From: Candidatus Poribacteria bacterium
Lineage (GTDB): Bacteria > Poribacteria > WGA-4E > WGA-3G
Assembly (NCBI GenBank): GCA_963665235.2
Contig: CAXXLX010000001.1
Location: forward strand, 1,440,001-1,504,000
Direction of reading: 5' to 3'
DNA length: 64,000 nt
Shown here: positions 28,867 to 46,230 of the stretch, in pieces
How the letters are laid out: each line of letters opens with the position of its first letter
Numbering within the stretch: the stretch's first letter is position 1
The notes under the pieces: generated by a model
What the model was told of the DNA's origin: nothing
Seen by the model: the letters and a program-made list of their open reading frames with translations, nothing else
Database searches by the model: none
Position numbers and translations under genes: made by a program

Positions 28867-29700
28867 ATGAAAGTGAAAACTGTAAGTCCCATCTGCCGGT
28901 CCGTGTGTGTTTTCAACCCCACTGCGGACATGAGGAAACATATCATAAAGACCCTCCTTTGTGCCGTGCTTTTAGGGGTTTTCGCAATTGGATATAGCCA
29001 GGCCGGAACTTGGAGAGATGACTTCAGCGGAATAGAACTCAACGGCTGGGAACAGATTTTCGAAGAAAATCCTTGGTTTGCAAGATGGAGACTTGTAGAT
29101 GAACAGCAGCGTCCCATTGTAGATGAACCATTTCTCCTCTTTGGTTATATTCGTATGCCTGAACAGGAGGATGTGACAGCAGCCGATTTTCTGCAATGGA
29201 ACGCCCATCCATTTCAACTTGACAAGTTAAAGGTAGTAGGCGAAGAGATACGTTATGGATGGCCCGTCACAGGTGAACTTTGCTTATTCCTCGGCAAACG
29301 GCAACCCAAACCTGACTTTGCCGAAGGTTATATTTTTTCACCTGAAAAGGCAACGAAAATGCAATTTACCGCAAATGGCGTTTATAATAAAGGGGAAGTG
29401 AAAGCCGAGTATGCTCTCATGCTCCGACTAACTTCAGGAGACCTAAAGGTTTTTTTCGACACCGGAACATTTCAAATCTTTACGCAAGACCTTTTCATAA
29501 CCGAATTCTTTGACGCTGAGATTACTATGATTGATGTCGTCGGTTTAATGATAGTGTTTGAATTTCCAGGGCGATGGTTTGATGCAACGATTTCAGCCTT
29601 TTCAGTTTCTGGAGCCGGTATTCGGAATTATAATTTGCTTGATGTGCCGTTGGGAAACACGCAACTGACGACCACTTGGGGAGAATTGAAACGTTTCTGA
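28867..29700 (+). CDS. Secreted protein (family A, DUF1080/ConA-like) with C-terminal tail
   Basis: Signal ...GYSQA|GTWRDDF; paralog of 37075 and 39848; tail QLTTTWGELKRF. Start could be 28930. Confidence 0.75.
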   Translation: MKVKTVSPICRSVCVFNPTADMRKHIIKTLLCAVLLGVFAIGYSQAGTWRDDFSGIELNGWEQIFEENPWFARWRLVDEQQRPIVDEPFLLFGYIRMPEQEDVTAADFLQWNAHPFQLDKLKVVGEEIRYGWPVTGELCLFLGKRQPKPDFAEGYIFSPEKATKMQFTANGVYNKGEVKAEYALMLRLTSGDLKVFFDTGTFQIFTQDLFITEFFDAEITMIDVVGLMIVFEFPGRWFDATISAFSVSGAGIRNYNLLDVPLGNTQLTTTWGELKRF

Positions 29701-29791
29701 ACGAAGTCAAAACACGCGGGAGATTCTTAGAGGTCTTTCCTTTCACAACAAATAAAGAATTTTGACCAAGGTTCGATAGAGGTAGCGAAAC

Positions 29792-32668
29792 ATGAAAAGC
29801 CTCGCGTCTATATGGGAATTGTGTCAACAGTGGTTTAAACGCTCGGTTCCGCTGGTTGTGCTTATTGGCCTGCTAAGCAGCTCGCTTCTTCTCTGTGTTT
29901 TTATCCGAACAGCGAATTACCCGCTCCTGGAAGAGACATATCTTCTCGGCACAGATTCCTATCGTTTTCTGCGTCAAGCCAATATTATTGTTTCGCAAGG
30001 GCATTTACCCGCAATTGACACACAGCGATGGCAGTTGGAAGGAAGAGATTTATCAACTTCTCTCAATCTTTTTTCTTATCTCCTTGCTTACACCTATCGT
30101 TTTCTGTATTGGTTTTTTCCAAACATAAGTCTCTACACGGTTGCTGTATATGCGCCTATTGTTTGCTATGCGCTTTGTCTGTTGATTCTTTACGTATTAT
30201 GGCGACGCGTTTTTGGGACATCCATTGCTCTCCTCGCTGTCAATTTTACTGCTATTTTCCCATCTCTGAATCTGCATCGTTCCACTGCGGGTTTTGCTGA
30301 CAGAGATGCCTTTGTCCTACTGCTGTGGTTGGTTATGTTCCTATTTTACCTGAAAGCGGAATCTACTCTTCCGAAAACAGGGGCATCCGCTGGTATTACT
30401 GCTAAAGCATCAGGCGGGAAATGGCTGTGTTCTTTTTATGCAGCGATATCAGGAATTGCTGGCGGATTGCTTGCACTTTCTTGGGAGGGGGTAGGTCTCG
30501 CGACAGTTATGCTCTCTATCTGGATTGGTGTACGCGTGCTGCGCGGTCGCTTTTCTCGTCAAAGCGCATCACTTTATGTTATTTGGTATCTCTGCTTCAC
30601 TGGACTTGCCTTCTCATTTACGCGCGCCTACCACAGCATTTGGATTCCTTATGCTTCTCTGACGATTGTCATCCCAACTATGACCCTTTTCTGTACCCTC
30701 ACATTTTTTGGGAAAGAGAATTCAACAACTACCAAAACAGAAAAACCTGCTTCCCTAAGGAAACGTTTGTTGGAATTTTCAAGGTACAGCAACATTTATC
30801 GATGCCTCTTCGGTTGTGTTATCACTACCTTCCTATTGGCAGGGTTTGCCCTATTGCAATCACCTGATATCAGTGAAACATTTCGTAGACTGTTTGACAA
30901 TTTTGTCTCACCCTCCGGGCGAAGTCGTCTTATGCTTACCGTTTCTGAACTTTTTGACTTAGACGGCATAAGGTTTCTCAGTAAGTATTCAGTCATAGCC
31001 TTGGCAGCAATGGCAGGTTGTGGGCTCCTAGTTTACAATTTCTTCTCAAAAGAGCGCGTCATTTTTCGGTTAGCTCTCATCGGTTTTGAAATAGTGCTTT
31101 GTGGAATCCTTCTCTCTCTTTTCCTTACAAATTCGGATGTCTCTTTTGGCATCTTTGGGTTTTCTTTTTTGGTAGGTGGGATCACGATAGGTGTAGCGTA
31201 TATCCTTAGAATAGGAGACAACCTCGGAAATAATAAGTATCTATTGGTGTTAATATGGATGCTTGTAGGTCTTGCCAGCAGTCGTGGTGCCGAGCGATAC
31301 CTCTTTTTTATTGACCCAGTATTGGCGGTCTTAGTGAGTTTTTTGATTTTTACGGGACTACGGAGATGTATGAAGGAGCGAATTGGGAATGATTCATCTG
31401 AGCAGACTGAAGTACAAGGTTCTGTATTCGGAACCGGGCAAACAGAATTGTGTGTAATAAGTCTTATCGTAGCTTCTGAACTGTATATTGGATATCGTCT
31501 ATTTGGTGTCGGTAGTTTCACAAAGGTGATTTTTCTTGGTATGGTAATACCATGTGCACTCTTCGGAATTTTGCTGCTGTACCAATTGGCACGGCTTAGG
31601 ATATCCCATCTCCAAAGGTTTGGCTGCATCGGGACCGTGTGTATTCTCATCCTCTTCACAAGTTCAGATGTTTTTTCCGTAGGAGGCGTTTTTAACCCTG
31701 CTCCCTTCCCGCTGCACAAAGGGTTTGTCCGGGCAAGTACCGAGTCGGTACGTAAAACAGCCGTACCTCGCTCCCCGAAATTGCAGAAACGTTTGGCTGA
31801 TATCGCGGAGCATACCGATGAACACGCGGTTATTACCGCTTGGTGGGATTACGGAAGCAAGATACATTGGTTTGCGAAACGTGCAACCGTTGTTGACGAA
31901 GACCACTATATTCCTTATTGGATCTTTATGATGGCGCGGCATGTCTTTAGCGGTGTATCTTCTACTGAAACGCTTACATTTTTAAAGACACATAACGTTA
32001 CGCATCTGTTGATAACGACAAACGACCTCCTTAAACTTGATACTATTACGTATACGGGCTCTGATGAAACTTATGACCGTGGTGCAGCTGTTCATTTTCT
32101 CATGCCAATTCGCAGCCGAGAAGTGGCACCTTCCGTGCAGCAAACAGACTTGATTCCACACAGTTCGCGAACTATGGATACGCTTTCGCTAAATGGAAAG
32201 GACTATCCACCAGGGCAATGGATGTTGCAAGGTGTTTCAATTATCGACGAGGGTGATACCTGGTCAGCAAAGGTTCATGGAATAACCAGGGACGGTAAAT
32301 TTTCTCTACCCCCAGCGGAATTACGGATTGGCACGTCACACATCAAGTCTGAGAAAAAGGGAGTCCCAGGCTCTATCGTTGTTTTTTCTAATGAGACGAA
32401 CCAGAAGGTGCAGGCATTTTATGTATCAGCAACCGCTGCACGTTTACTGACAGTTCGACTATATCTTTTTCTGGAGGAGATTCCTGGTTTTTCGTTGCTA
32501 TATGATACTAATTCTGAAGAGCGGTGTGAACTTGATGGGTTCCGGCTCTGGAAAATTGAGTATCCCGAAACAGTTCAACCCGAGCCGAAATATCGGCAAC
32601 ACGATTTTCCTGAAACTGAAAAGCAATTGAAACATTCATGGGAAAGGGGTGAGCTTATAGGTCGTTAG
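29792..32668 (+). CDS. STT3/AglB/PglB-family oligosaccharyltransferase
   Basis: 958 aa multi-TM; GTDSY (EL1 Asp), GFADRD (DxD), TVSE (TIxE/SVSE-like), WWDYG, DLLKLDTI (DK motif). Confidence 0.9.
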   Translation: MKSLASIWELCQQWFKRSVPLVVLIGLLSSSLLLCVFIRTANYPLLEETYLLGTDSYRFLRQANIIVSQGHLPAIDTQRWQLEGRDLSTSLNLFSYLLAYTYRFLYWFFPNISLYTVAVYAPIVCYALCLLILYVLWRRVFGTSIALLAVNFTAIFPSLNLHRSTAGFADRDAFVLLLWLVMFLFYLKAESTLPKTGASAGITAKASGGKWLCSFYAAISGIAGGLLALSWEGVGLATVMLSIWIGVRVLRGRFSRQSASLYVIWYLCFTGLAFSFTRAYHSIWIPYASLTIVIPTMTLFCTLTFFGKENSTTTKTEKPASLRKRLLEFSRYSNIYRCLFGCVITTFLLAGFALLQSPDISETFRRLFDNFVSPSGRSRLMLTVSELFDLDGIRFLSKYSVIALAAMAGCGLLVYNFFSKERVIFRLALIGFEIVLCGILLSLFLTNSDVSFGIFGFSFLVGGITIGVAYILRIGDNLGNNKYLLVLIWMLVGLASSRGAERYLFFIDPVLAVLVSFLIFTGLRRCMKERIGNDSSEQTEVQGSVFGTGQTELCVISLIVASELYIGYRLFGVGSFTKVIFLGMVIPCALFGILLLYQLARLRISHLQRFGCIGTVCILILFTSSDVFSVGGVFNPAPFPLHKGFVRASTESVRKTAVPRSPKLQKRLADIAEHTDEHAVITAWWDYGSKIHWFAKRATVVDEDHYIPYWIFMMARHVFSGVSSTETLTFLKTHNVTHLLITTNDLLKLDTITYTGSDETYDRGAAVHFLMPIRSREVAPSVQQTDLIPHSSRTMDTLSLNGKDYPPGQWMLQGVSIIDEGDTWSAKVHGITRDGKFSLPPAELRIGTSHIKSEKKGVPGSIVVFSNETNQKVQAFYVSATAARLLTVRLYLFLEEIPGFSLLYDTNSEERCELDGFRLWKIEYPETVQPEPKYRQHDFPETEKQLKHSWERGELIGR

Positions 32669-32704
32669 CAGAAGGGTCCGTATAAAAAGAGGAACCCTAT
32701 TAGT

Positions 32705-32978
32705 ACGAGTTGTGCTAAATAACTATTTGTCCAATATTATTTCACAATTATATAACGTCTTGTTAGTTTTTGTCATTGGTTGATTCCTTCTTTAGTCCCA
32801 GTATTCGGGCAAGCAGCCCGCTCTTTAAGGACGATATCTTTATAGAAAGTCGTTTCCGCCCCGGCCTCTTAGTCCCAGTATTCGGGCAAACAGCCCGCTC
32901 CTCAAGGACGATATCTTTATATGAATGTCAAATATCTGTGAAAACAACAAAAACAATGCGTTAACTGGCACAAGTCGT
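32705..32978. mobile_element. MITE (274 bp), ~19-bp imperfect TIR, 7-bp TSD TATTAGT, two internal compound REPs
   Basis: TATTAGT|acgagttgtgctaaataac...gttaactggcacaagtcgt|TATTAGT. Confidence 0.7.
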
Positions 32979-33345
32979 TATTAGTAGGATTTTCCGTTTT
33001 CTATAAATTGTCAGAATCTTGGATTACACGGATTTTAGGGTATGTAACATCCACAGTTTTGTGATTAAGGATGTTGCGTTTTTTCCGCATTATCGACACA
33101 TAAGTACAAAATACAAAATATTTACACAGGCCATGTCAAAGGGTGTGTAAAGTTTTTGTACAAGTAGAACTTACGCATTCCCCTCCGCTCCTCTACTAGC
33201 GGGATATCAGTATTAGTCCCAGTATTCGGGCAAACAGCCCGCTCTTTAAGGACGATATCTTTATAGAAACACAAAACATGCACCCCCTCTTAGTCCCAGT
33301 ATTCAGGCAAGCAGCCTGCTCTTAAGGACGATATATTTATAGAAT
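32792..33345. repeat. Four copies of a ~55-bp compound REP
   Basis: ttagtccc-agtattcgggcaaRcagcccgctc..-aaggacgatatctttata at 32792, 32869, 33213, 33290. Confidence 0.85.
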
Positions 33346-33781
33346 GAAAAAAATGTTGTGGATTATTACCATTTATTGCCCGTCGCAGCCCTGATTCTAG
33401 TAGAAAAACGCATCGCGCATCACAACCCTATACACGCGAGCTTGATAATAAATATCCGTTTTCTCTAAACATTTTTGAGGTTCTCCGAAAAAAGCGGAAT
33501 GAGTGGAGCAGAAACGGCTGCTTCTATAAATATATCGTCCCTACGGGACTAAGAATCGGGGCGGAAATGGTTTTCTATAAATATATCGTCCCTACGGGAC
33601 TAAGAGGCGGGCAGAAACCCAGATGCCTATAAACATATCGTCCCTAAGGAGCGGACTTTCAGTATTCGGGCAACCAGCCCGCTCCTGATACGAGGGGAAA
33701 ATTTTTCAAACTCACGTTATACGACACGACGGGCGATGAATCGCCCTACTACGAACGGAGGTCCAAAAACTTTACGCACCC
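33141..33781. mobile_element. MITE (641 bp), 18-bp TIR GGGTGYGTAAAGTTTTTG, 8-bp TSD ATGTCAAA (IS256-like ends)
   Basis: Left ATGTCAAA(33133-33140)|gggtgtgtaaagtttttg; right caaaaactttacgcaccc, with the TSD restored at 35057-35064 once the ISAs1 is removed. Confidence 0.7.
33434..33717. mobile_element. MITE (284 bp), same family as 25765-25915, 5-bp TSD TATAC, three internal REP copies
   Basis: TATAC|acgcgagcttgataataaatatccg...tcaaactcacgt|TATAC; internal ctataaaYatatcgtcccta x3. Confidence 0.8.
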
Positions 33782-33787
33782 ATGTCA

Positions 33788-35052
33788 CAGGGCCATTTAG
33801 TTTTAAGAATTTTCATGTGATGAGGTTAACTGCGAGTTTAGGTTTTGAGGCGAAAGATCGTATTGTCTCGGTGATTTTCGTATAACCGGCAAATCGTAAG
33901 ACTGCCAGTGCGGTGTTGCGTAAAGCTGCCATGACTTGGGGGATGCTGCCTGTTCTTGCTTTTGAGGCATCCTCTCCTAAAACCACGTCTCGAACCCAGT
34001 GGGATTTGTTTTCTATCGTCCAATGTTCTCGGTGTAGTTTTAGCAAGTCTTCCGCTGTTGCCTCTGCGACAAGTTAGTGATACCATACTGGATAGAAGTT
34101 TCACATTCACCTGTTTTGGTATTGACGCGCTGCACTTTGTATAGACTTGTGCAAGACCCGGCCAGTCAATATAATCTGACACGCTTGTGCTAGCTGTTCC
34201 CGTGTGATGATAAATCCGCGGTTTCTTCAACAAGGTGTGCCCCTGCTTGCGTGTGTGCGTTTTGAAGTCTGCCTTGATCGGGGGGGTCCGTCTAACAAGG
34301 GGGGCAAAGACCCACACAATATCGATATACATCTGTTTCTGATTCTTTTTGACACGCAGCACATAATAGGCTTTCTGTTTGATAAGTTCTTTACAAAAAG
34401 CACGTTGGGTCAATAGAGCATCCGTTGTCACCACTTTTCCTTTGACATCAAACTTTTCCAGCAGTTGCCGGGAAATAGGTATCTCATTGGTCTTGTGACT
34501 GACGGCACATGCAAGGGTAACCCCTAACTCATGACAGACAGCGGAGAGTAAATGGGTTCGGCGGCCGGTGTCTATGTCTATGGAACCGCAGAGTTCTTTA
34601 CCATCTATAGCAATGCCTTTCAAACCCGAGGGGTCTGTCCCTTCAAGAGCCGCAAGTTGTAAAGACACCCATTCGGTTGAGGGCGGTTTCTAAACTTTCT
34701 ATATCAAGATGCTTAAACAGATTATGAAAAACGGGGTCTTCCCACAACGGAAACCTAACGCTTCAGCCAGTTCAGGTTCATTGCGGGCCCAGGTCGCTAT
34801 AGACGTATAATATGACCGCACAGAAAACCGATAACATAAGAGCAAGGATGGAAACCAAAGGATGCCGTTTGCCTTTTGGGTGGATCTACAATTTGTGATA
34901 ATATACTGAGTAACATACTTCAACCTTCCTAAAAAAAAGGATTATTTTATTTACAGTGAAGTAAGCAGATGCAGCGAAAAAAGTCACGCTGCATCTGTCC
35001 AAATCAAAATAATAACAGATAGGAAAAAAATTCCTAAAACTAAATGGCCCTG
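33788..35052 (-). mobile_element. ISAs1-family insertion sequence (1265 bp)
   Basis: TIR cagggccatttagtttta / taaaactaaatggccctg; 10-bp TSD ACCCATGTCA at 33778-33787 and 35053-35062. Confidence 0.9.
33813..34923 (-). pseudogene. ISAs1 transposase, multiply frameshifted
   Basis: Fragments in different frames: IAIDGKEL, TNEIP, TTDALLTQ, VKKNQ; REHWTIENKSHWVRDVVLGED. Confidence 0.88.
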
Positions 35053-35071
35053 ACCCATGTCAAATATTTTC

Positions 35072-35100: not shown

Positions 35101-35327
35101 ATAATTTTATTGAGGGTGGGTCGGACATAAATCCTCGTAACTGCACTGATGGGAACCATAAATGTCTCAGTATTCGTTATAGTGTGGTCGGAAGCTGTAG
35201 CACGCTCTGTTAGATTGTGACTGCATCTTGCAAACGGACATTACGAAACCGCCGCGAATAATGAACCCACCTCGTTTAATTTTAATTTATGAGAATTTCA
35301 AAACGATACGAAAGGAGACCGAAAACA

Positions 35328-36074
35328 ATGCGCAAACGATTAGAGTTAATTCTGACAGCCCTACTTCCTGTAGCGGTTTTGTCAATCGGTTTTGTCACGT
35401 TTTCTTCAAAGGCTGGACTAAATAGCAACGAAACGGCTTCTCCGAAAGCATCCGGTGATTATTACAGAGCACCCGGTAAGGATGGTATGTACTTCGGTCC
35501 AGAAGTCTATTCCAGCACTCTAAACGGTGGCCCTTTTAATAACGGCTTTGAGATTGTGTATACAAACGAGTGTGGCAGTGTTTCTGCATCATCCACTCCA
35601 AATGCTGTTAGTTGGCACCGAAACCAAGTTTGGTCTTTTAGCACGGACCCTGAACATGATACACCGCCATGGGGCACCACTTCCTCCTACATTGCCCTCA
35701 GAGACGACCTTGGATGGGACGAGATTAGTCTTGGTGGAGGAACTACCGGGTATCCCTGGGCAGGATACGAAATACATGAAAGTGAGGCCGATTCCCTCAT
35801 AGTATCAGGCTGGACCGACGTAACAGGGTATAGACGTCATCCCGTGGATGCTGATGCTGATGATGAGCCGATATACATCTGTCCGATGTACTACAAGACA
35901 GGGGACTGGGTCTATGATGGTGCCACTGGGGGTAAGTCTCCGGATAACGTAGAAGAATATAAACAATCGAAAGGTCGCTTTGGACCTCCTATGTTTCGCG
36001 ATGAAGAAGAGCAAATACTCAGTCGGTTCGTAGCGGATTTAGATCGTTGGTTTGACTGTATAGAGTTGAATTAG
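35328..36074 (+). CDS. Secreted Trp/Gly-rich protein of unknown family (X1), no C-terminal tail
   Basis: RBS aaggag; N-terminal hydrophobic segment; shares YYRxPGK, FGPEV, DDLGWxEISxGGGTTGYPW, CPMYYK, RWxDCI with 43740-44504. Confidence 0.75.
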   Translation: MRKRLELILTALLPVAVLSIGFVTFSSKAGLNSNETASPKASGDYYRAPGKDGMYFGPEVYSSTLNGGPFNNGFEIVYTNECGSVSASSTPNAVSWHRNQVWSFSTDPEHDTPPWGTTSSYIALRDDLGWDEISLGGGTTGYPWAGYEIHESEADSLIVSGWTDVTGYRRHPVDADADDEPIYICPMYYKTGDWVYDGATGGKSPDNVEEYKQSKGRFGPPMFRDEEEQILSRFVADLDRWFDCIELN

Positions 36075-36170
36075 ATCTCGTAGTTTCAACCTTTTCAAGC
36101 AATGGGAAGGGAAGTTTGTATCTTTTCCCATTGCTTCTTCGCTAATCTCACAAAGGCAAGGAGGTGCCAC

Positions 36171-36947
36171 ATGAAACAGATGGCAAAAACTTGGATAGGT
36201 CTTGTGTTAATCGTCATACTTAGTGTTTTATCTCTATCTGCTTCTGCTCAGGTTTTTCGGGATGATTTTGATGTCCTGAAAGAGGCTGACTGGGAGCTTT
36301 GGGATGACGCTTCTGATTCTGTGTGGCGAGTTAAAGATGGGTTTTTAAGGGTAGCAATACCATCGAATGACTTTTTTAGACCTGCTGGATTCTTCCAATT
36401 TAAGGGAATTCCGGGCAACTACGAGACCTTCGAATTTTTTATTGAAGACCTTTTAATTCAGCGGCAGGAAAAGAAACCGGGGCCTGAGGTTTTCACAATT
36501 AAAGTTAACAATTTGGGTTCAAAAAAGGCGAGTTTTGGTGTCGCCATTGGACGAAGATTTCCAGAAGTGAGCAAAGGATACTCGTTCTTTTATGTGTTTA
36601 CCACCTATGGAATAGAGGCAAAGGCGTACATGTGGTTTGGTGTAGATCATTGGTCGGACAAGGAACCGCGCCACCCTAACGTCTTTCGGGAGGGGATATG
36701 GGCATTAGCATCCATGGAGATTCGTTTTGATAGGGGACATTTTCTATGGTTTGCGGATGGTGAAAAACGCGCGGATTTTGAAGACCCCGATTTTTCACAA
36801 ATTGAGCTCATCGGGTTTCTAATACGACCAGGTATTTTGGATGGTGGGAGTGGATGGGTGGATTCATTTACGATTTCGTATTCAGGGCTTGCTGTTTCAC
36901 CGCAAACCAAGTTAGCGACAACGTGGGGAACGTTAAAACGGTTTTGA
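36171..36947 (+). CDS. Secreted protein (family B, DUF1080/ConA-like) with C-terminal tail
   Basis: RBS ggaggt; signal ...SASA|QVFRDDF; tail LAVSPQTKLATTWGTLK; paralog of 37951. Confidence 0.78.
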   Translation: MKQMAKTWIGLVLIVILSVLSLSASAQVFRDDFDVLKEADWELWDDASDSVWRVKDGFLRVAIPSNDFFRPAGFFQFKGIPGNYETFEFFIEDLLIQRQEKKPGPEVFTIKVNNLGSKKASFGVAIGRRFPEVSKGYSFFYVFTTYGIEAKAYMWFGVDHWSDKEPRHPNVFREGIWALASMEIRFDRGHFLWFADGEKRADFEDPDFSQIELIGFLIRPGILDGGSGWVDSFTISYSGLAVSPQTKLATTWGTLKRF

Positions 36948-37074: not shown

Positions 37075-37908
37075 ATGAAAGTTAAAACTGTAAGTTCCAT
37101 CTGCCGGTCCGTGTGTATTTTCAACCTCACTGCGGACATGAGGAAGTATATCATAAAGACCGTCCTTTGTGCTGTGCTTTTGGGGGTTTTTGCAATTGGA
37201 TATAGCCAGGCCGGAACTTGGAGCGACGATTTTAGTGGAGCGGAACTCAACGGATGGGAACGTATTTTCGAAGAGGATCCTTGGTCTGTAGATTGGAGAC
37301 TTGTAGCCTGGGGACCTATGGATGACCATTTCCTCCTCTTTGGTGATATTCGTATGCCTAAACAAGAGGGTGTGACAGCAGCCGATTTTCTGCACTGGAA
37401 CGCCCATCCATTTCAACTTGACAAGTTAAAGGTAGTAGGTGATGAGATACGTTATGGACGGCCCGCCTCTGGTGAACTTTGCTTATTCCTCGGCAAACGG
37501 CAACCCGAACCTGACTTTGCCGAAGGTTATATTTTTTCTCCTGAAAAGGCAACGAAAATGCAATTTACCGAAAATGGGGTGTATAATAAAGGGGAAGTGA
37601 AAGCCGAGTATGCCCCCATGTTCCGGCTGACTTCAGGAGACTTAAAGGTTTTTTTTGACACAGGAACATTTCAAATCTTTACGCAAGACCTTTTCATAAC
37701 GGAATTCTTTGACGCTGAGATTACTATGATTGATGTCATCGGTTTAATGATAGTGTTTGAATTTCCAGTTGCCGATGTGCGATGGTTTGATGGATCGATT
37801 TCAACCTTTTCGGTTTCCGGAGAGGGTATTCCGAATCATAATTCTCTTGATGTGCCGTTGGGAAACATGCAACTGACGACCACTTGGGGAGAATTGAAAC
37901 GTTTCTGA
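37075..37908 (+). CDS. Secreted protein (family A) with C-terminal tail
   Basis: Very close paralog of 28867-29700; tail QLTTTWGELKRF. Confidence 0.78.
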   Translation: MKVKTVSSICRSVCIFNLTADMRKYIIKTVLCAVLLGVFAIGYSQAGTWSDDFSGAELNGWERIFEEDPWSVDWRLVAWGPMDDHFLLFGDIRMPKQEGVTAADFLHWNAHPFQLDKLKVVGDEIRYGRPASGELCLFLGKRQPEPDFAEGYIFSPEKATKMQFTENGVYNKGEVKAEYAPMFRLTSGDLKVFFDTGTFQIFTQDLFITEFFDAEITMIDVIGLMIVFEFPVADVRWFDGSISTFSVSGEGIPNHNSLDVPLGNMQLTTTWGELKRF

Positions 37909-37950
37909 ACATATCACTTTATCAACCTCACAAAGGCAAGGAGGTGCCAC

Positions 37951-38739
37951 ATGAAACTGATAGCAAAGACCTGGGTGGGTCTTGTGTTAATCGTCGTACT
38001 TAGTGTTTTATCTCTATCTGCTTCTGCTCAGGTTTTTCGGGATAATTTTAATGTCCTGAAAGAGGATGACTGGGAGCTTTGGGATGCCGCCTCTGATTCT
38101 GTGTGGCGAGTTAAAGATGGTTTTTTAAGGGTAGCAATACCAGCGAATGACTTTTTTATTCCTGCTGCATTCTTCCAATTTAAGGGAATTCCTGGGAAGT
38201 ACGAGACCTTCGAATTTCTTATTGAGGACCTTTTAATTCAGCGGGAGGAAAAGAAACCGGGACCTGAGGACTTCACAATTAGGGTTAAAAATTTGGGTTC
38301 AAAAAGGGCGAGGTTTGGTGTCGCCATTGGACGAAGATTTCCCGAAGTGAGCAAAAGACACGCGTTTTTTTATGTGTTTACCACCTATGGAATAGAGGCA
38401 AAGGCTTACATGTGGTCTGGTACGAGTCATTGGTGGGACAAAGAACCGCGCCATCCTGACGTTTTTCGGCAGGGACTATTGGAATTATCATCCACGGAGA
38501 TTCGTTTTAATAAGGGACATTTTCAGTGGTTTGCGGATGGTGAAAAACGTGCAGAGTTTGAAGACCCCGATTTTGCACAAATTGAAATCATCGGGTTTCT
38601 AATACAAGCAAATATGTGGCATGTAGGGAGTGGATGGGTGAATTCGTTCAGGATTTCGGGGTCAGGGCTTTCGAAGCTTGCCGTTTCACCACAAGCCAAG
38701 TTAGCGACTACATGGGGGCAACTCAAACAGCGAAGGTGA
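37951..38739 (+). CDS. Secreted protein (family B) with C-terminal tail
   Basis: Close paralog of 36171 including its RBS region; tail LAVSPQAKLATTWGQLK. Confidence 0.78.
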   Translation: MKLIAKTWVGLVLIVVLSVLSLSASAQVFRDNFNVLKEDDWELWDAASDSVWRVKDGFLRVAIPANDFFIPAAFFQFKGIPGKYETFEFLIEDLLIQREEKKPGPEDFTIRVKNLGSKRARFGVAIGRRFPEVSKRHAFFYVFTTYGIEAKAYMWSGTSHWWDKEPRHPDVFRQGLLELSSTEIRFNKGHFQWFADGEKRAEFEDPDFAQIEIIGFLIQANMWHVGSGWVNSFRISGSGLSKLAVSPQAKLATTWGQLKQRR

Positions 38740-38743: not shown

Positions 38744-39841
38744 ATGTCAAGACGTTCCGTTATCACAACAATCATCATTCCGGTGCTGCTGATTTCGGTG
38801 TTGGTTATCGTGCTCGTTAATAACCAGCGGGAGTTCCCTGGCGAGCTTGTTTTCGCGCAAAATAAGGTGGACTTCGGAACAATTCCTGAGTGGGAAGGGG
38901 TTGTAACACGTTCAGTGACAGCGAGAAATACGGGGGGAGGCACACTCCAAATAGAAAAAATTCGGGCAAGGTGTAGTTACGCAAAGATTACGGGCCCAAA
39001 ACTACTTCAACCCGCCGAGGAAGGAACGTTCGAAGTTGTGATTAATCCGCAAATCGTTCCGCTCGATGCGACCCCAGCGACGGCTGTCCTTTTCACGGAT
39101 AGCCCACGGACACCACAGGTTTATCTCACAATTGTCGCTTCGGCACAGCGGTTCGCCACCCTAAGCGCGGACATCTGCGATTTCGGAGAGATTCTCCCTG
39201 AAACGGTGCATGAAAAGCGGGTCAAACTGTGTGTAAACGCGCCACTCAATTTAGCGGAGGTCCGCCTCATGCCATCGACACATCCAGGGCTGATGTGGAA
39301 AATGTCGCCCGAGCCGGATTCAATCTGTTTCCACATCACAATTCAGTTGCAAGCTCCGAAAAAACGGGAACGGGTAGACACAGAGTCGCCTCCGGGCACT
39401 GCCGAAAACTTTTTTTCCGCGATACTTACCGTCGCTTTTCCGAATGAGCGAACTTTGACGTTGCCGATTGCTGCGAAAATAGTGCGTCCCGTGACAGTTC
39501 ACCCGGAAACCCTCTCCTACGGTGCGGTGGACAGAGGTACGGAGCCGTTTACTGAATTCACGCTCTCCGCGAAAAAAGGTTTTAAGGTGCTAAGTCTTCA
39601 GGTTCCGGACTCTGTGCGGGTTGCTGCGCCGGACGATTGGACGCAATCCTTACACGCCTACAACGCACACGGACAACCAGAGAAACGGTTCAAGGTTTTT
39701 TGGGAGGTGGCGAACTCACCTGAACTGCTGCGTGAAGAGATCCGGGTGCTGACCACAGCAGACCCGTTACCGCTCCGTATTCCTATTTACGGGTTAATTC
39801 GTTCCACAAAGGGTGGAACTATTACATCAGCTGGGAGGTAA
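38744..39841 (+). CDS. DUF1573-like Ig-repeat protein, membrane anchored
   Basis: N-terminal TM; VDFGTI...RNTGGGTLQI...C; repeated DFG/SYG Ig-like modules. Confidence 0.72.
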   Translation: MSRRSVITTIIIPVLLISVLVIVLVNNQREFPGELVFAQNKVDFGTIPEWEGVVTRSVTARNTGGGTLQIEKIRARCSYAKITGPKLLQPAEEGTFEVVINPQIVPLDATPATAVLFTDSPRTPQVYLTIVASAQRFATLSADICDFGEILPETVHEKRVKLCVNAPLNLAEVRLMPSTHPGLMWKMSPEPDSICFHITIQLQAPKKRERVDTESPPGTAENFFSAILTVAFPNERTLTLPIAAKIVRPVTVHPETLSYGAVDRGTEPFTEFTLSAKKGFKVLSLQVPDSVRVAAPDDWTQSLHAYNAHGQPEKRFKVFWEVANSPELLREEIRVLTTADPLPLRIPIYGLIRSTKGGTITSAGR

Positions 39842-39847: not shown

Positions 39848-40600
39848 ATGAGATATATCATAAAAATCGCTTTTAGTGTAGTGCTTTTGAGCATTTTCGC
39901 AATTGGACAGGGTTCTGCCGAAGTCTGGGTTGAGCCGTTTGAGGATGAGGAACTCAACGGGTGGGAATCCCCTGTGGAGCATTGGCGCGCCTGGTGGGAA
40001 GCTATAGAGGGAATGCTTTTCGCTCGAATTCAGAGATCCAATCACCGACCAATATGTGAGAAGAACATAGCAGATTTTCTGCACTGGAAAGCCGTTCAAT
40101 TTCAATTTGAGCAGTTAACAATGGTAGGCAAGGAAATGATTTATCAACAGGAGGGGCATAAAGGTATGGGGGAACTCTGTTTGTTCCTCGGTAAACAACA
40201 AATCGCACCTGACTTTGCAGTGGAGGGGTATATTGTCAGTCCCGAAGAGACAAGCAAAATGACGTTCTCCGAAACTGACGCTTACAATAGAGGCAAAACG
40301 AAGGCGTGGTACGGCGACAAATTCCCATTCACTACAGACCACCTAAAAGTTGTTTTTGATTCAGGAAAATTCCAGGTGTTTACGAACGAAGTCCTGCTAA
40401 CCGAATTTACGGATGATGACTTCACGAAGATTGATGTTGTGGGATTGGTCATTACGTGTCACTTCGGCGGCGACTGGTTTGGTGCCCGCATGTCAAGTTT
40501 TTCTATTTCTAATGTCGATATTCCTAATCATGGTCTTGCAGTTCAATTGCGGGGAACGCAGCTCGCTACAACCTGGGGAAATTTGAAGCAGTTTGAGTAA
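39848..40600 (+). CDS. Secreted protein (divergent family A) with C-terminal tail
   Basis: ADFLHW, GELCLFLGK, LKVVFDSGKFQ shared with family A; tail QLATTWGNLK. Confidence 0.75.
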   Translation: MRYIIKIAFSVVLLSIFAIGQGSAEVWVEPFEDEELNGWESPVEHWRAWWEAIEGMLFARIQRSNHRPICEKNIADFLHWKAVQFQFEQLTMVGKEMIYQQEGHKGMGELCLFLGKQQIAPDFAVEGYIVSPEETSKMTFSETDAYNRGKTKAWYGDKFPFTTDHLKVVFDSGKFQVFTNEVLLTEFTDDDFTKIDVVGLVITCHFGGDWFGARMSSFSISNVDIPNHGLAVQLRGTQLATTWGNLKQFE

Positions 40601-42708
40601 TGTACAACGCTATCCGTGTTTATGTCGTCCTGTTTCTGCTATGTTTCGGGACTCCTATCGGCATCTGCCAATCCCAAAAGGTCGGAACAATTCAGGGACA
40701 GGTTACAGATAAACAAAACAATCCACTCACTGGCTACACCGTCTCAACAGTTTCACAAAGAGACGACATAACCTACGCTGCCAAAACTAAGGCTGATGGC
40801 CAGTTTACGCTTACCAACCTTCATGCCGACACCTGGACGATAGAAGTTCGCCACTTCAGCACCCTCCTTGCACAACGTGAGGTCACAGTTGCCGGCGAAA
40901 CCGAAGTCAAAGCAGATTTTGTGATTGAAGGAACAGCCGTTATTTCCGGATTTCTGCTCGATTCTGTCAGTAAACTCCCCTTGCCGATTACGGGTCAGAT
41001 ACAGATTGGTCTCCTCACGTCTGACGACGAATGGATAGAGAGGACATACCGAGGTGAAATCGCTCATGGATATTTTGAAGTCAAAGATTTGTTAGCGGGA
41101 CGCTACGCCATTATCGATGCTTTTGACGGTTATGTCTCTGCAATGTCCGATTTACCCGTGGTAGCAGTTTATCCAGGAAGCATTGTGGGTGGTGTAGAGA
41201 TATTTTTGAAACCGGGGGCATCGCTCTCCGGTGTTTTCGTTGATTCTGAAAGCCGAGCCCCTGTCTCCGGGGTTGCTGTCAACGTGGCATCTGAAGTGAA
41301 AAATACCGTTTATCCTGACAGGACGTTCGCACATAAAACAGAGACAGGCGTAAACGGTGAATTTCGCCTCACAACGCCAAGTGACCCTGAAATCTATTAC
41401 GCCTTCACGCTTATGGCATCGCACCCACGGTATCAAACGCACCAGTGGCGGCGGGAGCTGTCACCGGATAAAAATGTGTATGCGTTAGGTGAACGGACAC
41501 TGAACCCGTTCTTGTCGCTACAAGGCACGGTGTCAGCTTCAAACTCGCGCGAGGCTGTTGATGGACTCACAGTGCGTTTAAAGATGCACAACAGAGCGGC
41601 AGATTTTTTCCGCGCAGCAGCCCAACCTGAACACACAGTGCGTCCTGATGCAAACGGCAATTTCCTTTTCTCTGAACTCCACCCAATTGAATATAGTTTG
41701 ACAATTTCCCGGAACAGTGTTATTATAGTGAATAAGGAGTCGGTCAACCCGCAAAGCGGGAAACCGCTTAAAATCCGCTTGCCGAAAAAATTGGAGACGT
41801 TACGCGGCACAGTTGTCGATGCCGAACAACGTCCGATTGCCGGTGCGAATCTCTATGCAGCGCGGCGCAGCGAAACCCGGCACGGGCACGACGTGCTCCT
41901 GTCCAAAACACAAACGGATGCAAACGGGGTTTTCCAAATGCAGGTGTTAAAAACAAAACCGCATCTCCTGTCCCTTGAGGTATCCAAAAAAGGGTATCTG
42001 TCAAGGGTATATCCGAACGTGGAGCTCCAAAAAGAGCCGTTGACTGTTCCGCTTCAAAAAGGATTTACGATTAAGGGGCGCGTCATTCTCCCGCGGAATG
42101 TGTCACCAGATGGATATTACATTGTGAACCTCTTTCCCGAATCGGCAAAAATGGAGCCGACGTTGAATCCACTGGGATTGAATAGACCGCTTCTCTCAAA
42201 ACGATTTCCTGTAACGCAGCCGACTTTCGTACTGGATGGACTATTTGAGGAAAAATACAGCCTCTATATCGCCGGAGAGGGTATCGCTACAACCGACAAA
42301 TTGAAGTGCCAAGCAGATGTGGATAGTGGAGAAGTGCTCATCGTAGCGGATAGACCCACAGTGGAATTAAAGGGACAAGTGCTTTGGGCGGATACAGGCG
42401 AACCTGTGCAAAACGCCTCGGTATCTCGCTCGTGGTATCCGTGGGAACTAACCCAATACGATATGTCTTTAACCCTAGACCGCTTTGAAACCGAGACAGA
42501 CGCACAGGGACAATTTGCGTTCTCAAATTTGACACAGGCACAGTATCAGCTGCGCATCCGTGCTGTCCAGTCGGTATTTGAAAAAGGGGTTGATGCATAT
42601 CAACATGTGTACCTCCAGAAGCAGGTTGCAATACCAGCTTGTAGTGATAATGTGCATCGTATCTATATAGGGAAAGCGGACGGTACCGCTTTTGGAGGAA
42701 AAAAATGA
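40600..42708 (+). CDS. Secreted carboxypeptidase-regulatory-like (transthyretin-like beta-sandwich) repeat protein
   Basis: Signal peptide; about seven modules of the type GxVxDxxxxPxxG...TDAxGxFxxxxL. Confidence 0.8.
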   Translation: MYNAIRVYVVLFLLCFGTPIGICQSQKVGTIQGQVTDKQNNPLTGYTVSTVSQRDDITYAAKTKADGQFTLTNLHADTWTIEVRHFSTLLAQREVTVAGETEVKADFVIEGTAVISGFLLDSVSKLPLPITGQIQIGLLTSDDEWIERTYRGEIAHGYFEVKDLLAGRYAIIDAFDGYVSAMSDLPVVAVYPGSIVGGVEIFLKPGASLSGVFVDSESRAPVSGVAVNVASEVKNTVYPDRTFAHKTETGVNGEFRLTTPSDPEIYYAFTLMASHPRYQTHQWRRELSPDKNVYALGERTLNPFLSLQGTVSASNSREAVDGLTVRLKMHNRAADFFRAAAQPEHTVRPDANGNFLFSELHPIEYSLTISRNSVIIVNKESVNPQSGKPLKIRLPKKLETLRGTVVDAEQRPIAGANLYAARRSETRHGHDVLLSKTQTDANGVFQMQVLKTKPHLLSLEVSKKGYLSRVYPNVELQKEPLTVPLQKGFTIKGRVILPRNVSPDGYYIVNLFPESAKMEPTLNPLGLNRPLLSKRFPVTQPTFVLDGLFEEKYSLYIAGEGIATTDKLKCQADVDSGEVLIVADRPTVELKGQVLWADTGEPVQNASVSRSWYPWELTQYDMSLTLDRFETETDAQGQFAFSNLTQAQYQLRIRAVQSVFEKGVDAYQHVYLQKQVAIPACSDNVHRIYIGKADGTAFGGKK

Positions 42709-42908
42709 AACCGAGTACCCGCTACGCAAAAATAGTCGAATGGTCTGACGAAGATGGATGTTATGTTGGAAGTTGTCCAGGGCTCTTTTACGGCGGCTGT
42801 CATGGTGATGATGAACAGGAGGTCTTTTCAGAATTGTGCAACATCGTTGAGGAGGTAATTGAAGAATATCAGCGTGAAGGTAAAACCCTACCTATCTTAG
42901 TCCCGTAG
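42705..42908 (+). CDS. Orphan HicB-like antitoxin, C-terminus formed by a REP
   Basis: YAKIVEWSDEDGCYVGSCPGL...CHGD; ends LPILVP* inside the repeat; no hicA. Confidence 0.75.
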   Translation: MKPSTRYAKIVEWSDEDGCYVGSCPGLFYGGCHGDDEQEVFSELCNIVEEVIEEYQREGKTLPILVP

Positions 42909-42975
42909 GGACGATATATTTATAGAAGAGACCACCACACCTCTTAGTCCCATAGGGACGATATATTTATAGAAG
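42895..42975. repeat. REP doublet
   Basis: tcttagtcccRtagggacgatatatttatagaag x2; inverted relative to the copies at 33524-33605. Confidence 0.85.
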
Positions 42976-43033
42976 CACAAAACGTCCGCCCTCTAATATA
43001 TTTCTTGCCAATCGCTAATCGCTAATCGCTAAC

Positions 43034-43720
43034 ATGAGAAACCTTTTGAGAATATTCATAACAATTTTTGCCATCCTCGTTTTACAAGGAATTGCCGATG
43101 CCGTTACATGGCAAGATGACTTTACGCAGGAAACAGAAGATAACTGGCAACTCATAGGAAACGATTCTGTATGGCAAATTGACGATGGATTTTTAAAAGT
43201 AGAAATTCAGACCGAAAAGCAGTGGCGAACCCTCTTCGAACTGTACCAATTTATAGCCTTCCCCGGTCCCTATAATAACGTTACAATCACACTTGAAACT
43301 ATCGGGGTATCGGACGCACGATTCGGTATTGCCATAGGAAAACGTTTCCTAAATACCGAAGGAGAAGTAGAGGAAACAGGGTATTATCTATTTTTCACAA
43401 ACGATATGCAAGCGTCACGAAACCAAAACGTCTTTATCGGGCCCGGTCAACGTTGGAACACAGACGAACTCAAACAGATGGTGTTACACATTAACAACGG
43501 TCGATTTCAACTGTTCGGTGATGACGAATTGCGCATGGATTTTACGGACGCGAACCTCACACAAATTGACATCATCGGGTTTGTTCTCGTCGACTATGTT
43601 ACAGATGCCGTAAGCACAGCGAGAGCCTGGGTAGATAAATGGACGATTTCCGGGCTTTCAGTTTCACCAAAGGACAAACTCACCACGCTCTGGGGACACC
43701 TGAAGAAAAAACAGCCGTAA
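43034..43720 (+). CDS. Secreted protein (family C, DUF1080/ConA-like) with C-terminal tail
   Basis: Signal ...ADA|VTWQDDF; ELYQFIA and RWNTD shared with 44545; tail LSVSPKDKLTTLWGHLK. Confidence 0.78.
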   Translation: MRNLLRIFITIFAILVLQGIADAVTWQDDFTQETEDNWQLIGNDSVWQIDDGFLKVEIQTEKQWRTLFELYQFIAFPGPYNNVTITLETIGVSDARFGIAIGKRFLNTEGEVEETGYYLFFTNDMQASRNQNVFIGPGQRWNTDELKQMVLHINNGRFQLFGDDELRMDFTDANLTQIDIIGFVLVDYVTDAVSTARAWVDKWTISGLSVSPKDKLTTLWGHLKKKQP

Positions 43721-43739
43721 ATTGTCATCTAGGAAAATT

Positions 43740-44504
43740 ATGTTGCGAAAAAATTTAGATCTGGTCTTTAACGCCCTTCTGCTATTACTCGTTTTAGGTG
43801 TCGCGTTCTGGGGTAGATTTGTTAGCGCGAGATTGAACTCGAGCGAACGGGCGCAACCCGCCGCATCGGGTGCGTACTATAGAACCCCCGGTAAAAACGG
43901 AAGGTGGTTCGGCCCCGAAGTGAATTCCCTCACACTCTGCGAAGGTGTCCATAATCCTTACAACAATAGAGGGTTTTTTGACATCGTTGAAACGATTGAG
44001 AACGCGGTAGTGTCCGCGTCAAGAATTCGCGGCGCGCTCCGCTGGTATCGTGGACAAAAGTGGGTTTTTGGAACAAACGACACTCCATGGGGAACAAACA
44101 CCTCCTACATCACCCTCCACGACGATTTGGGGTGGAGTGAAATCAGTCCTGGCGGCGGCACAACGGGGTATCCGTGGAGTGGCATTGAACGACACTGGCG
44201 CGATGGCGACATTATCCGCTCACAGGCAGTCGTGGTAGGATGGCGGCAGCAGCGATACGGCTCACAGCTATGGGTTTGCCCCATGTACTATAAAATCGGC
44301 GGCTGGGAAGGTGAACACCTTGAAGTCCACTGCCACACTCTCAGAACATGGTTTCCACCCGACTGGAACGTTCTCAAACAGAAGGATGGCGACTTCGGGA
44401 GACCCACCGAACGCAAACCCGGAGTGCTAAGCCGAAGAGGGCACAAAACCTCCCGCTGGTACGACTGTATACGGATATCCGAAGGTGATTCAAATCCGAG
44501 GTGA
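43740..44504 (+). CDS. Secreted Trp/Gly-rich protein of unknown family (X2), no C-terminal tail
   Basis: Paralog of 35328-36074. Confidence 0.75.
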   Translation: MLRKNLDLVFNALLLLLVLGVAFWGRFVSARLNSSERAQPAASGAYYRTPGKNGRWFGPEVNSLTLCEGVHNPYNNRGFFDIVETIENAVVSASRIRGALRWYRGQKWVFGTNDTPWGTNTSYITLHDDLGWSEISPGGGTTGYPWSGIERHWRDGDIIRSQAVVVGWRQQRYGSQLWVCPMYYKIGGWEGEHLEVHCHTLRTWFPPDWNVLKQKDGDFGRPTERKPGVLSRRGHKTSRWYDCIRISEGDSNPR

Positions 44505-44544: not shown

Positions 44545-45264
44545 ATGTCTAACAGAAATTCGGCAAAATCGCTTTTAATAGTATGGATAGCTGTTTATGC
44601 CACTATTGGCTGCACTCTATCTGCAGCGGCAGTGCGCTGGCATGACGATTTCGATACCGAAAACCCCGAAGCGTGGCACGTCGTCGGAAACCGCTCTGTC
44701 TGGAAAGTCGCGGATGGCACCTTGCAGGCACACGTCGATCGGGACTGGGATGTGCGGTATGAACTCTACCAATTCATAGCAGTCCCGCCCCCCTACAGAA
44801 ACTGGACAATTATTATAAACGACTTTGGCGGCGACAAGGTCCGCTTCGGTCTCTGCATCGGACGACATTTTCCGGAGACCGCCAAAGAAGACCCGTTTTT
44901 TTATGTCTTTTTTCCCGATGAAATTAGAGCCCGAAGATTCAACGGCAAAGGCAGCAGTCATCCGTTTCGGGTCCGGTTATCCCGCGAACCTCGGACACGA
45001 TGGAACACAGATGTGCTGCAACAGATGGAGCTGCATTTCAATTCCGGATATTTCCTACTGTTCGCAGATGGTGAATTCCGAACGGCATTCCGTGATGCAA
45101 ATTTCGCTAGCGTTGAAATAATAGGTTTTGTCCTAGAGGGCATTAATATTGCAAACGAATGGGTCGGCCAGGGATGGGCAGGGTCATTCACTATTTCGGG
45201 ACTAGATGTCTCCGCAGAGCTCCGATTAACCTCAAGTTGGGCACAGCTCAAAGGAAACCGATAG
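44545..45264 (+). CDS. Secreted protein (family C) with C-terminal tail
   Basis: Signal ...AAA|VRWHDDF; tail LDVSAELRLTSSWAQLK. Confidence 0.75.
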   Translation: MSNRNSAKSLLIVWIAVYATIGCTLSAAAVRWHDDFDTENPEAWHVVGNRSVWKVADGTLQAHVDRDWDVRYELYQFIAVPPPYRNWTIIINDFGGDKVRFGLCIGRHFPETAKEDPFFYVFFPDEIRARRFNGKGSSHPFRVRLSREPRTRWNTDVLQQMELHFNSGYFLLFADGEFRTAFRDANFASVEIIGFVLEGINIANEWVGQGWAGSFTISGLDVSAELRLTSSWAQLKGNR

Positions 45265-45280: not shown

Positions 45281-45766
45281 ATGCAAATTCACACCGCAAC
45301 CCCTCCTGAGCGCATATCCCATCGGCAAATCTACAAAGAAGCACTCATCGTCATTCTCTACATCGGGGTTGGTGCGCTAACGCTTTGGAGCACAGACCAG
45401 CTCGGGTATCTCTCCTCTACCGTTCAACCTATCAGCGGAACCGCCATGGTAGTTGAGTTTCCCGCTGTCCATCAAATCTGGAAACGGGGAGAGGCAGTAT
45501 TCGTTGATGCACGCTCGGCTGGTAGCTTCAGGCGGGGCCATATTCCTGGTGCCATCAATGTGCCTATCAACCGGGTCAAACAAACCCTCCCCGCACTGCC
45601 GACAGACAAAGAGACGCTACTAATTACCTATTGCGGGAGCATAGAATGCCCAAACGCCTATCAACTGATGCATCTGCTGTTAGGGTACGGTTACCGAAAC
45701 GTCAGGTTTCTCCCGCGGGGTCTAAAAGACTGGCAGGCATTAGGGTATCCAGTAGAGACAGAATGA
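45281..45766 (+). CDS. Membrane-anchored rhodanese-domain protein
   Basis: N-terminal TM; FVDARS, GHIPGAINVP, YCGSIEC. Confidence 0.88.
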   Translation: MQIHTATPPERISHRQIYKEALIVILYIGVGALTLWSTDQLGYLSSTVQPISGTAMVVEFPAVHQIWKRGEAVFVDARSAGSFRRGHIPGAINVPINRVKQTLPALPTDKETLLITYCGSIECPNAYQLMHLLLGYGYRNVRFLPRGLKDWQALGYPVETE

Positions 45767-46230
45767 CGATTTCATCAGTCCTAATAACAGCCCTTAGAGT
45801 CCTCCTCGGTGTCATCCTGCTTTTTGCGGGTATTGCCAAACTCTCAGGGTTCACTGCTTTCGCTATGCATGTCGCCAGCTATCAGTTGTTACCGATAGCA
45901 TTGGTCAAACCGATAAGTTATCTAGTGGTATCAGCAGAGATAACGCTAGGGGTGGTATTGTGCATCGGTTATTTTTCGCGGGGGGCAGGTATACTTGCAT
46001 CGCTTCTCTTTCTGATATTTGCAGTAGCCGTGACAACCGTGTTATGGCGAGAGCTGCCGTTGACAGATTGCGGGTGTGCCAATTTCCTCTTTAGTTTGTT
46101 GTTAGAGATGAAAACAGCTCCGAGCTGGCAGCACGTGTTCGGGAATGTCGTGCTAGCAGGTGGCAGTTTTGCCGTTACCTATTCCTCGCAGCGGGGATAC
46201 GGTTTGGAATCGTTCATCAAATGTTTGTAG
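45763..46230 (+). CDS. MauE/DoxX-family membrane protein
   Basis: RVLLGVILLFAGIAKL, YQLLP, EITLG, DCGC; ATGA overlap with the rhodanese gene. Confidence 0.85.
   Translation: MTISSVLITALRVLLGVILLFAGIAKLSGFTAFAMHVASYQLLPIALVKPISYLVVSAEITLGVVLCIGYFSRGAGILASLLFLIFAVAVTTVLWRELPLTDCGCANFLFSLLLEMKTAPSWQHVFGNVVLAGGSFAVTYSSQRGYGLESFIKCL

Follow-up and report, generated by a model that had tools for sequence, protein, structure and literature searches.

A conserved envelope-protein gene cluster of Poribacteria with a putative thiol-redox pair and an optional, probably often lost STT3-type oligosaccharyltransferase

To our knowledge, bacterial STT3-type N-glycosylation is known mainly from Campylobacter-type pgl loci. 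The Campylobacter pgl locus encodes PglB together with glycosyltransferases, sugar-modifying enzymes and the PglK flippase. Here we analyze a gene cluster containing an STT3-type gene at positions 28867–46230 of a 64,000-nucleotide (nt) window from a Candidatus Poribacteria bacterium (G000:C1:1440001-1504000, where G000 is the 5.3-Mb source genome; G and L numbers denote the genomes and loci compared). As in pgl, a bacterial STT3-family oligosaccharyltransferase is encoded within a co-oriented cluster. In contrast to pgl, no glycosyltransferase, flippase or sugar-nucleotide enzyme family was matched by the open reading frames (ORFs) of at least 140 amino acids (aa) in 28867–46230 using Pfam and NCBIfam, in agreement with what the original prediction reported for the first two. 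Additionally, the STT3 motif appears to be DK-like rather than MI, and the partners are exported beta-sandwich proteins, a candidate novel-fold protein named X, and a predicted thiol-redox pair.

The reading we favor, to which we give about an even chance, is that this operon-like cluster encodes an envelope-protein module with a thiol-redox pair, and that its N-oligosaccharyltransferase is ancestral and often lost. The core would consist of an exported beta-sandwich protein with multiple CarboxypepD_reg domains (CPDreg) and the tailed, concanavalin-like proteins C1 and C2, with X encoded between them. It would also include a membrane-anchored, Ig-like DUF1573 protein and, usually, a rhodanese (CxxxxC) and a MauE protein (CGC). 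X itself is predicted to be membrane-anchored, with conserved cysteines and a predicted fold that has no match. Essentially all genomes of one family, along with a single sister genome, appear to have the core, whereas STT3 and the extra A, B and X1 paralogues would be old but dispensable members of the cluster. Where it is found, STT3 most likely moves a lipid-linked glycan, made elsewhere in the genome, onto exported proteins at Asn-X-Ser/Thr, with products of the cluster probably among them; it would have been lost, interrupted or deleted in most lineages.

We examined the distribution of these genes in 121 Poribacteria genomes, which are kin and partly hand-chosen, so that the counts are not independent. 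A profile of X matched 82 genomes, including 80/81 of family f1 and the single genome of f6, and a DUF1573 profile matched 83, including 81/81 of f1 and 1/1 of f6; neither matched in f2–f5, f7 or f8. Some STT3-like match occurs in 85/121 genomes, while orthologous STT3 (at least 46% identity) is found in 10, the source genome included. X and DUF1573 are on one contig in 66 genomes (a hand tally of profile-match coordinates). Of these, 48 have them no more than about 10 kb apart, 9 have them at a distance of 12–21 kb, and in the other 9 the distance exceeds 50 kb. The CPDreg-C1-X2-C2 order was kept in nine of nine further genomes without orthologous STT3, three of which have an extra X' gene before C1, and in three genera the cassette is located after rplM-rpsI-purA. 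CPDreg orthologues are present in all 18 loci compared. The rhodanese-MauE pair was found in 12 of 18 loci examined, with YCGSxxCPNAY and CGC retained, and the six loci without a match were examined only to about 4 kb past X2 or do not have the pair nearby. In the source genome, X, DUF1573, CPDreg and MauE match nowhere else. Because the X/DUF1573/CPDreg/C/redox set is unique to this locus in the source genome and is kept in genomes without orthologous STT3, it is the stable unit, and STT3 is a minority member. Thus, the original prediction of a locus built around STT3 does not fit these counts, nor the nine genomes that keep CPDreg-C1-X2-C2, mostly with rhodanese-MauE, without the orthologue. 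DUF1573 at first looked like an STT3-specific partner (9/9 versus 3/9 loci), a candidate rejected by the phylum-wide profile search.

The features of the cluster, in window coordinates, are:
28867..29700, + strand: A1, exported concanavalin-like protein with a KLxTTWGxLK tail
29792..32668, + strand: STT3/AglB-type oligosaccharyltransferase, 958 aa (PF02516, E 2e-14)
32792..33690, no strand assigned: miniature inverted-repeat transposable element (MITE)-like repeats; a 57-nt unit in four direct copies, a related family of 39 nt, and inverted pairs between these
33781..35059, − strand: insertion sequence (IS) element; 33-nt inverted repeats flanking a frameshifted DDE_Tnp_1 transposase
35289..36074, + strand: X1, membrane-anchored X-family member, 45% identical to X2
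36102..36947, + strand: B1, tailed concanavalin-like protein (superfamily alignment)
37075..37908, + strand: A2, tailed concanavalin-like protein, 85% identical to A1
37951..38739, + strand: B2, tailed concanavalin-like protein (superfamily alignment)
38744..39841, + strand: DUF1573 protein, 365 aa (PF07610, 34.7 bits versus a cut-off of 26.1)
39848..40600, + strand: A3 (called A' in the original prediction), tailed concanavalin-like protein (superfamily alignment)
40600..42708, + strand: CPDreg, exported CarboxypepD_reg repeat protein, 702 aa (PF13620, E 1.3e-48, 5 stretches)
42705..42908, + strand: 67-aa ORF, earlier labelled hicB; no family match
43034..43720, + strand: C1, tailed concanavalin-like protein (model pLDDT 84)
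43722..44504, + strand: X2, membrane-anchored X-family protein (family alignment, model)
44545..45264, + strand: C2, tailed concanavalin-like protein (superfamily alignment)
45281..45766, + strand: membrane-anchored rhodanese-domain protein (PF00581; motif YCGSxxCPNAY)
45763..46230, + strand: MauE/DoxX-family membrane protein with a CGC motif (PF07291); its start overlaps the rhodanese stop

Every long ORF in 28867–46230 is on the + strand in the ORF listing, and neighboring genes overlap or are separated by short gaps. They run in the order A1, STT3, repeats and IS, X1, B1, A2, B2, DUF1573, A3 and CPDreg, followed by the 67-aa ORF, C1, X2, C2, rhodanese and MauE; ORF listing and family scans agree here with the co-oriented order given originally. 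Within this interval Pfam and NCBIfam assign only STT3, DUF1573, CarboxypepD_reg, rhodanese, MauE and the transposase. Counts in a promoter and terminator scan were the same as in shuffled sequence. Housekeeping genes flank the cluster, with RsfS, PP2C and an M19 dipeptidase upstream and UppS (48462–49265), a trypsin-like protease and RsgA downstream, and none of these adjoins the cluster in the other loci compared. UppS is a chance neighbor since it is not beside the cluster in 17 other loci compared, consistent with the earlier remark that a nearby cis-prenyltransferase was possibly there by chance.

Orthologous STT3 looks broken in three of its ten genomes: the G045 gene is interrupted by an IS630 transposase gene, and the G077 and G073 copies contain stops or frameshifts, which could be assembly errors. 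A1 and A2 form direct repeats of 87–93% DNA identity (A1 versus 37056–37910) that are 8.2 kb apart. A 1950-nt contig of a near relative, from a public DNA-type run, joins window position 29255 to 37468, and the same run has no depth over 29329–32648 (STT3) and a depth of 13–65 over the remaining cluster. Thus, a close strain has one A gene and no STT3-IS-X1-B1. In a midpoint-rooted CPDreg tree of 18 loci, with hand-chosen STT3-less rows and with G120 and G023 left out for having no CPDreg gene, the STT3-bearing rows include both of the deepest ones together with members of two inner clades, and at least three changes are required. Because of the IS630 insertion, the broken copies, the 8.2-kb difference and the CPDreg tree, ancestral presence of STT3 with repeated loss fits.

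All nine orthologous-STT3 loci with enough context (G000, G035, G045, G077, G073/L059, G033, G025, G046 and L063) also carry DUF1573, CPDreg, X and C-type tailed genes; the contigs of G120, which shows A-STT3-X1-B-B-DUF1573, and of G023 are too short for judging. At least four gene orders were found: A-(X-A-)STT3-DUF1573-A3-B-CPDreg-C1-X2-C2-Rhod-MauE, CPDreg-C1-X2-C2-DUF1573-STT3, C-C-Rhod-MauE-DUF1573-X-C-A'-STT3-CPDreg, and CPDreg-X2-C2-C2'-C1-Rhod-MauE-DUF1573-A3-STT3. Identities to the window in G035/G033/L063/G046 are 77/52/53/43% for STT3, 75/53/56/40% for DUF1573 and 73/49/49/39% for CPDreg, and joint inheritance of the three fits since these values fall in parallel across genomes. An A-type tailed gene is directly upstream of STT3 in seven loci (G000, G035, G045, G077, G073, G120 and L063). 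Recurrence in other genomes shows that more than chance lies behind the arrangement; the doubt that the combination might not recur elsewhere is thereby answered.

It is unlikely, in our estimate, that STT3 is instead a general N-oligosaccharyltransferase of envelope proteins, not specifically tied to its neighbors and placed here only by common ancestry or co-regulation with envelope genes. That explanation would account for neighbors poor in sequons, for a cluster that works without STT3 in most genomes, and for the many possible targets elsewhere: exported proteins with the tail number more than 100, and C-terminal domains of the type IX secretion system (T9SS) type occur on about 40 proteins. 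However, the linkage of STT3 to the same partners goes beyond what an unrelated passenger would show, because it has persisted through at least four rearrangements, in several genera and also in a second family.

A dedicated STT3-centered pathway, in which MauE, rhodanese and DUF1573 would fold proteins and STT3 would glycosylate X and/or the tailed cargo for display, gains from this same linkage: STT3 is always inside the cluster (9/9), the A-type gene precedes it in seven loci, the X1 paralogue type is seen only beside STT3, and the redox motifs are conserved. We nevertheless judge it unlikely, since X, DUF1573, CPDreg, C1/C2 and mostly rhodanese-MauE remain in genomes without an STT3 orthologue and since STT3 is broken or deleted in close relatives. 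N-X-S/T sequons also speak against it. In the A, B, C, X, DUF1573 and CPDreg orthologues they number about 0–3 per 250 aa, which is near chance, and they are not enriched in STT3-bearing relative to STT3-less genomes. The proposal that STT3 glycosylates its neighbors thus found no support, and the counts taken by themselves neither favor nor rule out the neighbors as substrates.

Most of the family motifs are in place in the window STT3, using motif definitions from PMC8342417. The protein reads GTD55SY, D170-R-D172, T-V-S-E386, WWDYG at 684–688 and D745-x-x-K-x-x-x-I, and among PDB sequences it is most similar to the STT3 proteins of yeast and human, with matches around WWDYG and the second DXD loop. 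Both DXD motifs, GTD55(S/A)Y and D170-R-D172 on external loops 1 and 2, are invariant in 12/12 aligned sequences, and the second aligns with the catalytic loop of yeast STT3. On external loop 5, T/S-[VI]-x-E is present in 12/12, with E386 invariant. WWDYG is kept by the window STT3 and its orthologues of at least 46% identity (alignment of 12 relatives) and was found in nine of the ten orthologue loci L001–L010, the other, L007, being only the N-terminal piece of a split gene. About 60 residues past WWDYG, D745-L-L-K-L-D-T-I fits D-x-x-K-x-x-x-(M/I), with the register to yeast set by position only. According to PMC8342417, MI is the motif of Eubacteria and DK that of Eukarya and part of the Archaea, which makes a DK-like bacterial STT3 unusual.

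By these definitions the protein resembles archaeal AglB and eukaryotic STT3 in both DXD motifs, T-V-S-E on external loop 5, WWDYG and, tentatively, D-x-x-K-x-x-x-I. It differs in being very distant (E 1e-6 to yeast; 63.6 bits to TIGR04154 versus a cut-off of 450), in reading VDEDHY where DGGK or DNXTZNX[T/S] would stand, and in its bacterial host. As far as its sequence goes, STT3 is motif-complete in most respects.

The window STT3 is the sole long WWDYG-bearing STT3 homologue in the source genome. tblastn found STT3-like matches at five other places (L043–L047; about 803793-805550, 2113103-2113783, 2201027-2203380, 2849144-2851541 and 3495882-3498295 of contig C1), which group as a separate family; the four with aligned C-terminal parts read HWTYG, NWPHG, NWGYG and HWRFG instead of WWDYG. 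These paralogues are 40–62% identical among themselves, with the L043/L044 pair at about 90–95%, and two of them have the same three upstream genes, of unassigned families (about 146, 290 and 525 aa). The window lineage is small: a search of 5.8 billion proteins gave 42 clusters (E<=1e-10), and there are 19 loci in a one-genome-per-species GTDB set, from Poribacteria and unnamed metagenome-assembled genomes (MAGs) plus one Armatimonadota record (27% identity). In another Poribacteria family (L067 8441–20158 and L068 8514–21556), distant STT3 homologues of about 26% identity alternate with PD40-tailed-like genes, and WWDYG is seen in the corresponding loci of G102 and G051.

Several observations weigh against an ancestral N-oligosaccharyltransferase as part of an envelope module. 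The activity, glycan and substrate of STT3 are predicted only. Relatives at 38–42% identity read WWGYG, not WWDYG; close orthologues read E-L-L-R-L-D-x-I at the DK-like site, with E/D and K/R variation; and the DGGK / DNXTZNX[T/S] motif is absent, the site reading V-D-E-D-H-Y-I-P-Y-W and similarly in all 12. The cluster is retained without orthologous STT3 in about nine in ten of the genomes having the core and, because it persists in this way, its function cannot depend on STT3. To these are added the lack of glycosyltransferase and flippase matches in the locus, the unenriched sequons, the kinship of the genomes and the possible assembly errors in G077 and G073. Two metatranscriptomic runs from one study contain contigs 90–97% alike to B1, DUF1573, A3, CPDreg, C1, X2, C2 and rhodanese/MauE, a weak hint of expression, as these are assembled contigs, DNA carry-over is possible and the strain has no STT3. 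The parts of the window lacking such contigs, STT3 included, give no evidence of silence.

MauE and MauD act in methylamine dehydrogenase maturation, and DoxX-SseA-SodA is a mycobacterial membrane oxidoreductase complex. Similar to both, the MauE/DoxX protein described here is translationally coupled to a rhodanese, with conserved cysteines in each; the locus differs in having no amine dehydrogenase, SodA or precursor of a ribosomally synthesized and post-translationally modified peptide nearby. MauE matches PF07291 with 74.7 bits (cut-off 27; E 1e-20) and the rhodanese matches PF00581 with 60.7 bits (cut-off 22.2). As originally predicted, the MauE CGC and rhodanese CxxxxC motifs are present, and they are conserved in 10/10 and 11/11 full-length orthologues, respectively, the latter as YCGSxxCPNAY-type motifs. 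One cysteine of CxxxxC would be catalytic, and the most likely role of the pair is in thiol/disulfide chemistry at the periplasmic face. Our guess for its client is X, with its conserved cysteines. The DUF1573 protein is anchored in the membrane by its N terminus, and its residues 36–120 form an Ig-like domain.

The X family is small: one database yields 43 clusters, and a search of 1.84 billion proteins yields 39 representatives (E<=1e-3). It has some 45 invariant positions, including E66, E93, E156, H158 and C249. A model of X2 (mean predicted local distance difference test, pLDDT, of 84) has an N-terminal helix and a beta-rich domain. No match to this fold was found with Foldseek against PDB (best E 0.05) or VIA-align over 48,161 chains (best Z 3.3), and the ESM Atlas gave no usable match, which is no proof of a new fold. 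Complex prediction for X2 (36–256) with C1 (22–228) gave no answer (score 0.00, mark 0.32). Positions about 102–166 of the X profile match 13 times in P0236 (3587 aa) and five times in P0241 (1296 aa), and this segment may be a repeat unit that is used elsewhere.

The A, B and C proteins belong to one superfamily, with identities of the others to A1 of 85, 49, 28, 26, 26 and 24%. The likely start of A1 is the second Met, at residue 22, and B1 and B2 are 93% identical in DNA over 300 nt. C1 was modeled with a mean pLDDT of 84 as a concanavalin-like jelly roll with its tail as a low-confidence appendage. In this fold it resembles DUF1080 (PF06439) and LamG domains, and its closest clusters in the ESM Atlas, all Poribacteria families, have PF06439 in 71–95% of their members. 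The A/B/C proteins differ in their lineage-specific C-terminal tail and in matching no Pfam family: A1, B1, A3, C1 and C2 matched neither PF06439 nor any other family at E<=10.

With Foldseek, the C1 model is placed closest to GH16 endo-glycanases and to legume and L-type lectins (E about 1e-6, template-modeling score about 0.5). Together with the PF06439-rich neighbors in the ESM Atlas, these matches would suit a glycan-binding or glycan-degrading locus, in which A/B/C are lectins or GH16/DUF1080-like enzymes, CPDreg and DUF1573 serve as scaffolds and STT3 is unrelated. We consider this quite improbable, since none of the seven proteins matches PF06439 or another glycoside-hydrolase family at E<=10 and a Pfam scan found no transporter or TonB-dependent receptor in the locus. 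Moreover, the GH16 pattern is E-x-D-x-x-E, and the sole invariant charged residues of the C-family alignment (E165, R167, D172 and K224) do not, in our reading, fit it.

Foldseek also matched the C1 model to Emp47p, VIP36 and the calreticulin globular domain. Such lectin-fold proteins could be read as part of a bacterial counterpart of the eukaryotic endoplasmic reticulum glycoprotein-maturation set, a multi-component machine for N-glycosylation and quality control that would be ancestral to one Poribacteria lineage and now decaying. Its other parts would be the DK-like STT3, single-pass beta-sandwich partners (DUF1573 and CarboxypepD_reg, NOMO/EMC7-like), the thiol-redox pair and X as a putative new-fold membrane protein. 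We regard this idea as highly improbable.

A tail of the form L-[AP]-V-[ED]-P-x-x-K-L-[AT]-T-T-W-G-x-[LI]-K plus 1–6 residues terminates 108 ORFs (at least 100 aa) in the source genome. An N-terminal hydrophobic stretch precedes it in 106 of the 108, and 13 of the 108 are in the window; the seven A/B/C proteins form their own BLAST cluster among them. The tail occurs on LamG-type, PD40-propeller and other domains, and no Pfam or NCBIfam model matches it. As a DNA pattern it is found in 119/121 Poribacteria genomes at 3–82 copies each (0–1 for the reversed control), with 0 copies in the one Armatimonadota MAG tested. Thus, it is a feature of the phylum and not of this locus. A role in sorting or anchoring, as a signal not described before, may be its function. 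X as a processor of the tail was rejected because those 119 genomes include families without X. Other tailed ORFs in the window lie at 16882–19220, 22500–23270, 46474–47583 and 52487–53269, and other tailed proteins in the window match Laminin_G_3. The 46474–47583 gene, a PD40 tailed gene on the minus strand, abuts the cluster.

The C-terminal sorting domain of T9SS (PF18962, about 75 aa) has no match in the A/B/C proteins. About 40 matches occur on other proteins of the source genome, away from A/B/C, many clustered at 63188–325649 of contig C2, with open frames mostly longer than 400 aa and mostly longer than 600 aa. It seems from these matches that the short tail is not the only C-terminal signal of this genome, which would use a classical one as well. 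Exosortase had no match in the source genome.

The cluster is undescribed in the literature searched. Searches combining Poribacteria with oligosaccharyltransferase terms returned no paper on the subject; the papers listed contained nothing on a TTWG C-terminal motif or a Poribacteria sorting signal, and the DUF1573 papers, judged by listing, give no function. What is described here is a DK-like STT3 in an uncultivated, sponge-associated phylum, with no glycan-assembly genes adjacent and locked to a set of exported proteins. Natural strains include ones with STT3 intact, interrupted and deleted, providing a comparison for the purpose of glycosylation. The phylum-wide tail, which more than 100 exported proteins carry in a genome, would point to an undescribed signal for sorting or anchoring.

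Elsewhere in the window, distant from the cluster, are a GmrSD-type restriction endonuclease and a HepT-like/nucleotidyltransferase gene (8944–10650; 58146–59108). Within the cluster, the label hicB for the 67-aa ORF could not be upheld, with no match in Pfam (E<=0.1), NCBIfam (E<=1) or PDB sequences (best E 0.039, unrelated). The CPDreg-C1 gap in which it lies (window 42709–43033) carries small inserted genes in several genomes, among them a PIN-domain gene in G024 (L048 14718–15239) and unassigned ORFs of 90–150 aa in G035, G045 and G014, and looks like a landing site for toxin-antitoxin-like cassettes. The IS element has its 33-nt inverted repeats at 33781–33813 and 35027–35059 around a broken DDE transposase, which is frameshifted into 33838–34668 and 34699–34923. 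The four 57-nt MITE-like copies adjoin it within 32792–33346, and further copies are at 42900–42959. In metagenome contigs, the bins of this MITE-like family reach a very high depth when summed (as much as 5316 in one run), indicating that the element is abundant in these communities.

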